A stretch of 64,000 nt of DNA, taken from Eledone cirrhosa. Lineage: Eukaryota. A program made the position numbers and the translations under genes. Below, piece after piece: positions 19,367 through 61,370 of this stretch. The notes beneath the pieces were generated by a model. It was not told the DNA's origin, did no database searches, and worked only from the letters and a program-made list of their open reading frames with translations. Each line of letters opens with the position of its first letter. The first letter of the stretch is position 1. Location of the stretch: contig OZ024766.1 in assembly GCA_964016885.1 (NCBI GenBank), positions 1,736,001-1,800,000 on the forward strand, in the 5' to 3' direction.

Positions 19367-19437
19367 TATTTTATTATGCGCATTTCAAAAACAAATATCA
19401 TCCTGGGATGATAGTTGCGTTCTCATCAGATAAAATA
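19367..19437 (-). ncRNA. Minimal type-I hammerhead ribozyme motif (stem III palindrome ATGCGCAT)
   Basis: TATTTTAT-CTGATGA-[GAACGCAACTATCATCCCAGGATGATATTTGTTTTT]-GAA-ATGCGCAT-A/ATAAAATA. Perfect 8-bp stem I, hairpin stem II, AUA cleavage triplet. Confidence 0.8.
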
Positions 19438-19829
19438 AGGTAACATGATATGATGCCTAAAAAACACTTGTGAACAGGGAAGTGTAAATTAATTTTTTTT
19501 AAAATTTACTTATCTCTTATAAATTATGTTTTTAAAAATGTTCCCGAATTGTTAATATTTTTTAATAAAATTTTTTAATATCTTTTATTAGATTTATAAC
19601 CACTAATTCAGGCTAAATATATCTTTAACATTTAAACTTATTTTGACAAAATAGTCTCATACTAACGAATAAATAAACCAAACTGGAGTTTTCTCTGTAT
19701 CTTCCCAATTTAAAATATATAAATATAAATATTCTTATTAACTCAGTTAACTTAATTACTTACATTAAATATAAACCAATAACGTCTCTATTTATAAAAA
19801 AAACGTCTCTATTTATAAAAAAAACTTTG

Positions 19830-19894
19830 TATTTTATCTGATGAAAGCACACCAATGTTGTCTTGGTTGCCCTTGAAATATATATAATAGAATA
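19830..19894 (+). ncRNA. Minimal hammerhead motif (ATATATAT)
   Basis: TATTTTAT-CTGATGA-[AAGCACACCAA..TTGGTTGCCCTT]-GAA-ATATATAT-A/ATAGAATA. Confidence 0.7.
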
Positions 19895-20879
19895 AATATG
19901 GTTTTATAAATATAGTTTCCATTTATTTGATATCATAGTATATATATATATATATATATATATATCAAGATAAGCAGAACAAGTAAAATTCAACCAATTT
20001 TTCAAAATAAATAAAAATTAATTTACAATTAAAATTAATCAAAATTAAAAAATATAATATAAATATTTACCTATTCGAGTGGCCCTTACTGTACAGTTTC
20101 ATTTTGAAAAACATTAGATATCACATGGATATTAATGGAAAAACAAAGATCATATATATATATAGATATAGTTCAAAATGACAACAGACACAGCGGGAGT
20201 CAATGGTGTGTGGTGTTATTAGCTTCATGCTATTTAAACTTATATTTAGAAAGTTGCAAGCATAATTTGAAAACTGGATTAGAAGAAATTGGCCTAACTT
20301 CAACACAATAGAATAATTTAATAATAATATAGAGAGCATAGTTCACACACACACATACATATATACACACAGAGAAACATAAATGAAAACAAAAGACAAC
20401 AGAAAGATAGACACTCCCATCTCATCAGCTAACCTCTGGAAATAACTACAGTTTTGGTATTTTCAAGGTTGGTACCTTTCATTCTAGTGCACATTGCTAC
20501 ATAGCAGAACAGGTAGAGACAAGTTATGACTTTAGGTGAATTACCCTAATATAGATGAAAAAGTGTCACGTATCATACACATACATACATACATATACAC
20601 ACATACATACACACACATACATACACACATACACACACATACATACATACACACACATACATACATACGTATACACACACACACACATACATACACACAC
20701 ACACACACACATACATACACATACACACATACACACATACACACACATACATACACACACATACATACACACATACACACACATTCGCATACATACACAC
20801 ACATACATACATACACACATATATATTTGTGTATATATACAAATCTGTTGTTCTATTTAGCTGCTATTTTTAGTGGCGA

Positions 20880-21395
20880 GATAGACAATGTGAGGTAGAG
20901 AATGTGAGGTAGACAATGTGAGGTAGACAATGCAAGGTAGAGAATGTGAGGTAGACAATGCGAGGTAGAGAATGTGAGGTAGAGAATGTGAGGTAGACAA
21001 TGTGAGGTAGACAATGCGAGGTAGAGAATGTGAGGTAGAGAATGTGAGGTAGAGAATGTGAGGTAGAGAATGTGAGGTAGACAATGTGAGGTAGACAATG
21101 CGAGGTAGAGAATGTGAGGTAGAGAATGTGAGGTAGAGAATGCGAGGTAGAGAATGTGAGGTAGACAATGTGAGGTAGAGAATGCGAGGTAGACAATGTG
21201 AGGTAGACAATGTGAGGTAGAGAATGCGAGGTAGACAATGTGAGGTAGACAATGTGAGGTAGAGAATGCGAGGTAGAGAATGCGAGGTAGACAATGTGAG
21301 GTAGACAATGCGAGGTAGACAATGTGAGGTAGACAATGTGAGGTAGACAATGCGAGGTAGACAATGTGAGGTAGACAATGTGAGGTAGAGAATGC
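20880..21395. repeat. 14-bp minisatellite gaggtaga(c/g)aatg(t/c), about 37 copies
   Basis: Direct reading. Confidence 0.95.
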
Positions 21396-21944
21396 GTCTA
21401 TGTTTACTTCCGCTTCTACTATGGGCTGGCTGGTTCATATATAGGTCAAATTTTCGGCGCAATATATTTTGCCGTTCCTGGGACTTTTTCTCCTAGGAAA
21501 GGAAAATGCTCTCTGATGATCTGAACTTTTCCATTGGAGGCCCCTAGGGATCCCCAATCTTTTGTGAAGTGAAACCATTGGTAAAAGCAATTGGAATAGG
21601 TAAATGTTTAAATTATATTTTTTTAATTTATTTTAAAAACGCCCTTGCCATTCTGAGTTCAAATCCTGCCAAGGTTGACTTTACCTTTCATCCTTACGGG
21701 GTCGATAAAATAAAGTACCAGTAATACACTGATGTGATTGCTGGCCTTGTGCCAAAAGGTAGAAACAATTATAGTTCTGGTATGTCAAATTAATCCCATA
21801 GAACAACCACTGTATCATAGACACCCTATATATTTCCAGGGGTACTTAGTACCTGTGGGGATATTAACTTCTTTTATATATATGTATATATATAACGGAG
21901 GGGAAGGGGAAGAGAGTCATGGGGAGATGGAAAGAAGGGAAAGA

Positions 21945-22530
21945 CAGAGAGATAGAGACAGTATGAGAGAGGGGGGGTAGAGAGGCAGTGAGAGAGATAG
22001 AGACAGTATGAGAGAGGGGGGGTAGAGAGGCAGTGAGAGAGATAGAGACAGTATGAGAGAGGGGGGGTAGAGAGGCAGTGAGAGAGATAGAGACAGTATG
22101 AGAGAGGGGGGTAGAGAGGCAGTGAGAGAGAGAAAGAGGGAGAGAGAGAGAGAGACAGTGGGAGAGACAGTGAGAGGGAGAGAGAGACAGTGAGAGCGAG
22201 AGAGAGAGACAGTGAGAGAGGGGGGGAGACAGTGAGAGAGAGAGAGAGGGAGAGAGAGACAGTGAGAGGGAGAGAGAGACAGTGAGAGGGAGAGGGGGAG
22301 AGAGAGAGAGACAGTGAGAGGGAGAGAGAGAGAGACAATGAGGGAGAGAGAGAGAGAGACAAAGAGGGAGAGAGACAGTGAGAGGGGGAGAGAGAGACAG
22401 TGAGAGGGAGAGGGGGAGAGAGGGAGAGAGAGAGAGAGAGACAGAGAGAGAGACAGAGAGAGAGAGTGAGAGAGAGAGAGAGAGAGAGAGAGAGAGAGAG
22501 AGAGAGAGAGAGAGACAGTGAGAGAGATAT
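21945..22530. repeat. 45-bp unit x4 grading into a (GA)n-rich tract
   Basis: 15-aa periodicity in the ORF track, then GA/GACAGT repeats. Confidence 0.9.
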
Positions 22531-59937: not shown

Positions 59938-60310
59938 CCCCACTCTACACCACTCAGCAGAGCTATTTGTACAGGTGCACCATCTGCAGTGAATACTAAC
60001 AGCTGGGTATCCCATATTTGATGTTTACAAAGGATTTCTGGATGAGTTCACAATAAAATTAATTGGTTTTGTTGAGCAGATCGATAACCCCCCCTCCCTT
60101 CGCCTACACACACCTACACACACCTACACACACACATATGCACAGACACTTGTACACATATGTACTCATACACACACATACTCAAATCTTATTGGCATGT
60201 CTTTATTCTAGGGTGGTTTTATAATCAAATCTAATAAATATGGTTGCATTCCACTGTGGTTCTATACACAAGGATGTAATTTATTCCATTTTTTTACTGT
60301 TAAAAGGAAG

Positions 60311-60545
60311 GGTGGTTTTATACTCAAATCTTATTGGCATGACATTATTCTGTGGTGGTTTTATACTCAAATCTTATTGGCATGACATTATTCTGTGGTG
60401 GTTTTATACTCAAATCTTATTGGCATGACATTATTCTGTGGTGGTTTTATACTCAAATCTTATTGGCATGGCATTATTCTGTGGTGGTTTTATACTCAAA
60501 TCTTATTGGCATGGCATTATTCTGTGGTGGTTTTATACTCGAATT
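60311..60545. repeat. 43-bp tandem array (about 5.4 copies) just upstream of the host exon acceptor
   Basis: Unit ggtggttttatactcaaatcttattggcatgacattattctgt. Confidence 0.92.
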
Positions 60546-60655
60546 ATATTATAAATAGGGGTGTAATTTATTCCATATTTTCTTTATAGCTTTAGAATGA
60601 AGGGTGGTATTATACTCGAATAATTTATTAATTATCCTTTTCTTTATTCTTCCAG

Positions 60656-60776
60656 GCCCTAGATATACCAGAACTGGAATCTGAGGAACCTTTAAATAGG
60701 GCTGAACAGGATCTCCTTAAAGTTCCGACTCCCGTGAAGAGTACAAACCCATCGAATACCAACACATTGGCACAAT
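60656..60776 (+). CDS. Internal coding exon of the host gene (ALDIPELESEEPLNRAEQDLLKVPTPVKSTNPSNTNTLAQ+1 nt)
   Basis: Strong polypyrimidine acceptor ccttttctttattcttccag|G and donor CAAT|gtaaga. 121 nt, open in phase 0 (matches the end of exon 96..196), exits phase 1. Confidence 0.75.
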
Positions 60777-61308
60777 GTAAGAAACTGTTGTTATTGTGGT
60801 GGTTGTGTGGTGTTGTGGTGGTGGTGGTGGTGGTGGTGGTGTGGTGGTGGTGGTGGTTGTAGTGGTGGTGGTTGTGTGGTGTTGTGGTGGTGGTGGTTGT
60901 GGTGGTGGTGGTGGTTGTATGGTGGTAGTGGTGGTGGTGGTGGTTGTGTGGTGGTGGTGGTTGTAGTGGTGGTGGTGGTGGTGGTGGTTGTAGTGGTGTG
61001 GTGGTGGTGGTGGCGTGGTGGTGGTGGTGGTTGTATGGTGGTAGTGGTGGTGGTGGTGGTTGTGTGGAGGTAGTGGTGGTGGTGGTGGTTGTAGTGGTGG
61101 TGGTGGTGGTGGTGGTGGTGGTGGTGGTGGTTGTGTGGTAGTGGTGGTGGCGTGGTGGTGGTTGTGTGGTGTTGTGGTGGTGGTGGTGGTGGTGTGGTGG
61201 TGGTGGACCCAACACTCAACTGTGCTGATGGTTCAATTCCAATGTTTGGCAGCCAAAACTGTAATTGAACCATCAGCACAGTTGAGGCATGTCAGACATC
61301 AATTTATA

Positions 61309-61370
61309 TATTTTATCTGATGAGGACGTACTGATGAAACAGCTCAGTACCTCTGAAATATATATATATA
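61309..61370 (+). ncRNA. Hammerhead motif, 3' side running into (TA)n
   Basis: TATTTTAT-CTGATGA-[GGACGTACTGA..TCAGTACCTCT]-GAA-ATATATAT-A. Confidence 0.6.

Follow-up and report, generated by a model that had tools for sequence, protein, structure and literature searches.

What are the 14 hammerhead ribozyme motifs scattered among microsatellites in a 64-kb stretch of the Eledone cirrhosa genome (GCA_964016885.1, contig OZ024766.1, positions 1,736,001 to 1,800,000), and what decides where each copy ends? Comparison of genomic copies assigns the motifs in this stretch (hereafter the window, meaning all 64,000 nucleotides (nt) of it) to end fragments, or pseudo-long terminal repeats (pLTRs), of six related families of Penelope-like retroelements (PLEs) of the Hydra clade. 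A hammerhead family is ordinary for PLEs; what matters is the rule behind the copy ends. The six families inserted into (TA)n, and we consider it likely that their two 3' ends are set by a conserved pair of RNA hairpins that would position the reverse transcriptase (RT).

All 14 motifs of a preliminary description of the window are present, in position and strand, and the high copy number it claimed is borne out: the strict pattern ATTTTATCTGANGAN{15,40}GAAAT has 25,433 + 25,212 exact matches (50,645 in all) across the 2,996-Mb genome, whereas its reversed control has 6. Its density of one copy per 4.5 kb describes a dense locality and not the genome, with 9 strict matches in the 64-kb window, 6 in the flanking 200 kb and 1 per 59 kb genome-wide; the window is ~8-fold denser in hammerhead copies than the genome average. 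Distinguished by stem II, the 14 copies form six families (A–F). Core, UA-H site and stem I (8/8) are all intact in only 6 of the 14 (19367, 19830, 31018, 35947, 37164 and 52107), and core plus UA-A is present in 10. The defects recognized at the outset (35792, 44492 and 55070) stand, but the list was incomplete, having missed the loss of U16.1 in copy 44263 and of the stem I 3' strand in copy 61309; there is also one stem I mismatch each in 45141 and 45315, and two in 52768. Stem II had been said always to fold, and does so in 13/13 copies that have it (z = -1.8 to -7.9; 200 mononucleotide shuffles each), albeit weakly in three (-2.2 to -2.6 kcal/mol). Eleven of 13 copies have a self-complementary 8-mer after GAA (A15.1 to U16.1), in four different versions; pairing of its inner bases requires two molecules, which is the arrangement of the dimer model put forward in PMC4209133. 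Core mismatch within families is 1.7% in A (43/57 copies kept), 2.4% in D (26/28) and 3.8% in E (24/30), beside a stem I mismatch of 3.1–4.1% in the same three; the 8–11% mismatch of the 5' flank is inflated by truncation and subfamilies and is not a clean control for core conservation. Tandem repeat makes up 39% of the window, for which Rfam returned 428 weak matches, of which the 150 listed all fell below gathering score and were microRNA models lying on microsatellite; Rfam scans of two focused stretches matched no hammerhead and no other family.

Elsewhere in the genome the same motifs flank coding sequence. At one locus an 808-codon frame lies between two direct hammerhead copies, and full elements run in the order hammerhead, hairpin 1, 83–99 nt (the twin hairpin spacing in this genome), hairpin 2, start codon, RT/GIY-YIG frame, 3' untranslated region (UTR) of ~1 kb and hammerhead. 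A search for longer copies adjoining an RT/GIY-YIG frame, the check proposed in the preliminary description, succeeded for each of families A–F, and the frames beside hammerheads bear out its classification of the motifs as type I minimal hammerheads of the PLE pLTR kind; no piece of a Hydra-type frame was found inside the 64-kb window. Family A has many uninterrupted frames of ~800 codons: 50 of the 56 listed genome matches to the 808-codon protein are without internal stop (93–100% identity), and a hammerhead adjoins the frame in 29/30 family A loci selected by frame (one being another family's hammerhead). For family E, whose read-through copy (L246) is missing the hammerhead, the link comes from a shared leader and from locus L151. 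The order hammerhead, leader, frame is found in families A–F and in two more, G (L200, L208, L238 and L244) and H (L229–L231), both of which the strict count misses; these have their own stems I and II, the same AUA site, an (AT)4 stem III and twin hairpins.

The encoded protein has an RT followed by a C-terminal GIY-YIG domain in a single frame, with YRDD and a GIY-YIG-like core. RWI/RWR/RWK and DKT motifs (not DKG) are present in families A–H where the region is readable, a CxCx5C linker in A, B, D and F, a C-terminal CxxC in A, B, D, F and G, and CxH in A–D, F–H and E (L151). The GIY-YIG-like core is without the two internal cysteines, one cysteine only lying between the GIY and YIG equivalents. 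RW/DKT, CxCX5C, absence of CCHH, and CxxC with CxH are given as diagnostic of the Hydra clade in the published account (PMC8557442), and our assignment to that clade is by motifs, with published reference proteins compared by eye; a hammerhead in the pLTR and insertion into (TA)n, two further features by which the clade is recognized, are both found here. A family A unit measures 3,895 bp in a tandem, longer than the clade's 'under 3 kb' because of the 1-kb 3' UTR; that length is a descriptive, not a diagnostic, trait. RT and nuclease folds are assigned from motifs and from the family matches of relatives: homologues match PF26215, PF00078 or GIY-YIG models, the GIY-YIG model matches 2/27 aligned relatives, RVT_1 matches P0025 (33% identity), and a PDB sequence search with the protein alignment gave nothing significant. 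Of 37 homologues, just one is named, from Argonauta hians. Two observations concern other elements. The same genome holds another Penelope-type frame with a DKG motif and a GIY-YIG piece (L039, 5940–7624, −), and a palindromic repeat at L214/L215 (G000:C1:68.64 Mb), with TTGAGCACT beside a CTGAGGA motif and no tie to a Hydra frame, is possibly another PLE end.

The copies stop at two fixed places. In a survey that selected 147 copies on core, stem II, downstream anchor or position and disregarded the tail, 87 end before hairpin 1 (short) and 51 before hairpin 2 (long), the others comprising 3 earlier ends, 3 between the hairpins and 3 read-through copies. Thus 138/147 stop ~7 nt ahead of one or other hairpin and then pass into (TA)n, a TA run following 102/112 short and 51/58 long ends. 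An offset of -7 is compatible with 72/120 short and 37/61 long junction brackets, the scatter of a few bases arising from TA microhomology. As sole cause of the ends, TA microhomology was rejected: the perfect (AT)4 patch of stem III, which serves as a control, ends just 1/186 copies, and therefore microhomology alone does not fix them. The one-sided tail of PLEs is itself already known, described in PMC3846280 and PMC8557442 as 30–40 bp long and without sequence signal.

The hammerheads are of a known kind, and the less familiar part is what lies downstream, namely the twin hairpins and a helix that encloses them. In read-through copies of every family, two related bulged hairpins of the form RCUC-[inner stem-loop]-NN-GAGY-RCU occur between hammerhead and start codon. 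Among distant relatives (77 metagenome loci, 30–41% protein identity), the hairpin is present in 42/52 usable 5' regions and after 17/24 usable 3' hammerheads, over a background of 14 matches in 114 kb of frame interior (0.02 per 160 nt). The metagenome twins are 55–83 nt apart, and at several loci the 3' copy, judged by eye, diverges from the 5' leader 3–8 nt before the hairpin. Across 81 distinct hairpins a 2-nt bulge gives the only register that pairs, and 80, 62 and 53 of them form the first, second and third inner pair, respectively, compared with permutation maxima of 68, 49 and 48 (10,000 permutations); the outer stem is conserved in sequence as well as pairing. The stretch after hairpin 1 pairs with that after hairpin 2, forming the enclosing helix from sequences unrelated among loci (-12.1 versus -6.8 kcal/mol, 0/100,000 permutations; 28 loci, two near-duplicates dropped). 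By eye, the published File S7 consensi of PMC8557442 contain the exact hairpin in 3/6 and variants in 2, with one, incomplete, lacking it. Searches of the openly accessible literature, the main text of PMC8557442 and Rfam turned up no account of the twin hairpins or of the helix around them; the supplements of PMC11167929 may show a comparable fold.

Short and long ends are not distributed independently. Among 34 divergent, back-to-back pairs, 28 are of one family with two terminal ends, and all of these (28/28) join a short to a long arm, for which our own arithmetic gives ~5e-10 under random end pairing; left out were four pairs whose two arms fall into separate families, one of these having an early end, and two pairs in which an arm reads through. 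Eight of the 28 came from loci selected for length. A search for inverted partners ≤1 kb upstream, counting both arms of a pair separately, found for 80 short copies 38 long partners, 2 short and 35 with none, and for 47 long copies 23 short partners, 0 long and 19 with none. Over 29 pairs, divergence is 5.2% between the two arms and 9.3% between an arm and other copies. The other extremity is also clustered, 5' ends lying 60–69 nt upstream of C3 in 10/26 family A and 12/22 family E copies and 60–84 nt upstream in 16/30 family D copies; in family E pairs the cores are 127–128 nt apart in 5/6, twice the 5'-end distance. We read this cluster, 60–85 nt upstream of the core, as a putative RNA 5' end or transcription start. 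Full tandems with read-through junctions exist as well (L354 and L357). A GGTAYGTCA-like motif is shared 30–45 nt upstream of C3 in families B–F, with ATCATGTC in A, and may act as a splice donor or belong to a promoter.

We favour, if only slightly, a specific form of the hairpin proposal, in which a 130–170-nt structured RNA (hairpin 1, enclosing helix and hairpin 2) docks two telomerase-related RT subunits, each starting ~7 nt before its hairpin on opposite strands of a cut (TA)n. The element protein, probably a dimer, would bind both hairpins of one uncleaved RNA and cut both strands of the (TA)n target, and the UA-rich patch immediately 5' of each hairpin would be where the RT subunit bound there begins its cDNA. 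With an mRNA starting in the pLTR as template, both cDNAs would run off the RNA 5' end after 170–270 nt and be joined head to head, which would account for the abundance of short back-to-back copies lacking a frame; the long copies would come from RNA that reads through tandem copies. If this is true, one RNA element explains the one-sided tail, the back-to-back structure and the excess of short frame-less PLE copies. Because telomerase is sister to the PLE reverse transcriptases, a defined RNA docking element bears on how such enzymes choose a start site; it could also let a compact, (TA)n-targeting RT carry a chosen RNA. A duplicated conserved RNA signal, a fixed end distance and strict short-plus-long pairing together make an exactly testable rule, one that fixes annotation boundaries for ~50,000 repeats hidden by low-complexity masking.

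Comparable behaviour is reported for Poseidon_Ac (Frangieh et al. 2024, PMC11167929). The published account describes internal RT initiation in vitro at two tail-bounding sites with both strands extended, a predicted dimer, use of uncleaved RNA and hammerhead mutants without effect on insertion, and the two tail-bounding 3' ends and AT-rich target are shared with the families here. Poseidon_Ac starts in one AC-rich stem-loop, 111–118 nt inside the frame, whereas both ends of the present families precede the start codon, and each stands before its own clade-wide hairpin inside a larger covarying fold.

Several points weigh against our interpretation. The mechanistic steps are drawn from genome patterns, as is the proposed RNA 5' end. 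An offset of -7 falls outside 48/120 short and 24/61 long junction brackets. No inverted partner was detected within 1 kb for 35/80 short and 19/47 long copies, and the partner arm is the closest copy in only 10/29 pairs. On the RNA side, 10/52 distant 5' regions are without the strict hairpin, the enclosing helix beats a within-locus shuffle (p ≤ 0.05) in only 16/28 loci, and in-context pairing of hairpin 1 is weak in 5/8 families (probability 0.03–0.36). Pfam, run on protein P0001 itself, gave no RT or endonuclease match.

Other explanations share parts of this evidence. Were the hairpins to direct RNA cutting or 3'-end formation ~7 nt upstream, RT would then start at true RNA 3' ends with priming of the long interspersed element (LINE) type and the same two genomic ends would result; consistent with this, Anolis RNA-seq read ends coincide with RT start sites (PMC11167929). 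Two separately processed RNAs alone would not give 28/28 mixed pairs, however, and the internal initiation demonstrated in vitro for Poseidon_Ac also argues against such processing, which we judge unlikely. We hold it just as unlikely that the signal is read in DNA or cDNA, with the GIY-YIG domain recognizing the inverted GCTC/GAGC repeat and resolving a transposition intermediate, thereby making the one-sided tail. Conservation of the outer stem in sequence beyond pairing would fit that idea, as would the attribution of the tail to endonuclease resolution in PMC8557442 and the requirement of the Drosophila virilis Penelope tail for endonuclease recognition, as cited in PMC11167929. The inner pairs and enclosing helix, by contrast, covary with free sequence, as fits a folded single strand, and short-ended copies never hold the motif, which therefore acts on the template side.

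Dimeric hammerhead cleavage might yield a circular, unit-length RNA that RT rounds from the hairpins, giving more-than-unit pLTR copies; this scheme, proposed in PMC4209133, is compatible with the hairpin model and would supply another template for long copies. It would accord with the retention of core and palindromic stem III across families with unrelated stems I and II, and with the finding that 0/28 3' pLTRs of frame-bearing family A copies extend to hairpin 2, so that linear templates for long ends are scarce. Read-through tandems nevertheless exist, only ~1/100 of the listed family A copies begins at the predicted cut, with no 5'-end pile-up there, a circle without a 5' end cannot explain the cluster at -60 to -85, and Poseidon_Ac hammerhead mutants inserted unaffected (PMC11167929); the circle seems to us a shade less probable than either of the preceding schemes. 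Very improbable, and already largely refuted, is the single non-autonomous, ribozyme-bearing, retrozyme-like family envisaged in the preliminary description. Most copies do lack a nearby frame (frame matches in 3, 4 and 1 of 30 loci), and animal retrozymes have been proposed to derive from pLTRs (bioRxiv 10.64898/2026.07.22.740005). Against it, the copies divide into six families with a separate Hydra-type frame linked to each, and they are variably truncated pLTR pieces instead of tandem 150–400-nt units; they also lack hairpin 2 and so would be unable to template long ends. The metazoan non-LTR retrozymes of that preprint share the type I hammerhead and the PLE connection, but consist of tandem non-coding units each with a hammerhead, whereas the 14 window copies are dispersed, truncated ends of coding elements, and no array of tandem units is present among them.

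Published Hydra-clade PLEs, among them Hydra-1_Obim of Octopus bimaculoides (Craig et al. 2021, PMC8557442), have the same frame motifs, a 3'-end hammerhead and (TA)n targets. The families described here are new relative to those published: Hydra-1_Obim, the one octopus family found in that paper's supplement, has a different hammerhead sequence, and as compared with the published clade the unit is 3.7–3.9 kb rather than <3 kb, the tail 83–99 nt rather than 30–40, the cleavage site AUA rather than GUH, and copies number in the tens of thousands. One-sided tails and inverted pLTRs have long been described, their understanding in vitro being named as a next task in PMC8557442. The PLE hammerheads of PMC4209133 likewise have a long helix II, a palindromic stem III and an additional base following the core, and occur as mostly solo copies from truncated PLEs with nearby opposite-strand pairs; there copies reach up to ~9,000 against 50,645 here, where the predicted cleavage site is AUA.

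The AUA site had been called unusual, which holds within the Hydra clade, where GUH occurs in 26/26 published rows and 30/31 metagenome relatives, but not more widely, AUA being a natural hammerhead site that occurs in viroids (PMC1636495). The hammerhead, with its AUA site and palindromic stem III, is predicted to need a dimer for cleavage, and insertion itself likely does not depend on the ribozyme.

Within the window, a family A pLTR fragment at 19240–19492 (−) holds an intact hammerhead (C3 19429) and hairpin 1 (19297–19324) and has a long end followed by (TA)n; a family C/D-type fragment at 19803–19945 (+) has an intact hammerhead (C3 19838), a short end and (TA)n from 19939; and a family C fragment at 30882–31119 (−) has an intact hammerhead (C3 31075), a hairpin 1 variant (30946–30968) and a long end, then (TA)n. 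A back-to-back family B pair follows, its short arm at 35743–35926 (−) having a 3-nt deletion in the core and its long arm at 35892–36148 (+) an intact hammerhead (C3 35955), hairpin 1 (36061–36082) and (TA)n from 36143. The family A short arm at 37120–37296 (−; intact hammerhead, C3 37226, then (TA)n) is partnered by an inverted tail fragment of the same family with a long end and no hammerhead (37300–37354, +). At 44232–44406 (−) is the family C fragment that has lost U16.1, with a short end, and at 44431–44662 (+) a family D fragment in which an internal deletion takes the 3' half of the hammerhead, with hairpin 1 (44569–44591) and a long end, then (TA)n.

A family E fragment at 45088–45206 (−) is 5'-truncated within stem I and has a short end, and at 45277–45378 (−) lies a chimera with a family E hammerhead and then family A 3' sequence to a short end; this direct pair (45141/45315) was considered as a retrozyme dimer and rejected, one copy being the E/A chimera and microsatellite lying between them. 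Absent from the preliminary description is a family A fold-back without hammerhead at 46568–46711 (−), formed by an inverted short arm and a long arm, with hairpin 1 at 46622–46649 and (TA)n on both sides. Further along are a family D fragment with an intact hammerhead (52057–52203, −; C3 52159) and a short end before (TA)n, a family E fragment with two stem I mismatches and a short end before (TA)n (52705–52884, +), a family D fragment (54870–55165, +) that carries a C3A core change, extends 208 nt upstream into the 3' UTR and ends near the short end, and a family F fragment (61258–61379, +) without the stem I 3' strand, which stops early at stem III in (TA)n.

The window also contains a further family of tiny fold-back inserts in (TA)n, at 46805–46988 (−), 61381–61566 (−), 14495–14700 (+), 27397–27486 (−) and 32929–32984, with the same bulged hairpin at 14632–14658, 27400–27426, 46850–46876 and 61426–61452. 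In the fold-back at 46805–46988 one arm stops ~7 nt before the hairpin and the other contains it, and the turning point keeps just the GAAAC half of a hammerhead. Elsewhere in the genome, at L160 (G000:C1:116.38 Mb), a 713-bp direct duplication copies a whole short-plus-long family D insert with its microsatellite flanks and is a local DNA duplication or an assembly effect, not a retrozyme array. Of the remaining features of the window, minisatellite arrays occupy 11449–12811, 14850–15747, 29630–30805, 49586–50547 and 61883–63192, whose repeat units measure roughly 72, 111, 112, 80 and less; a common dispersed repeat is the building block of several. A 757-codon open frame, in a single stretch at 6952–9225 (−), encodes long N/Q-rich tracts followed by a Galactosyl_T domain (PF01762, E 7.8e-48) and is likely a host beta-1,3-galactosyltransferase gene.

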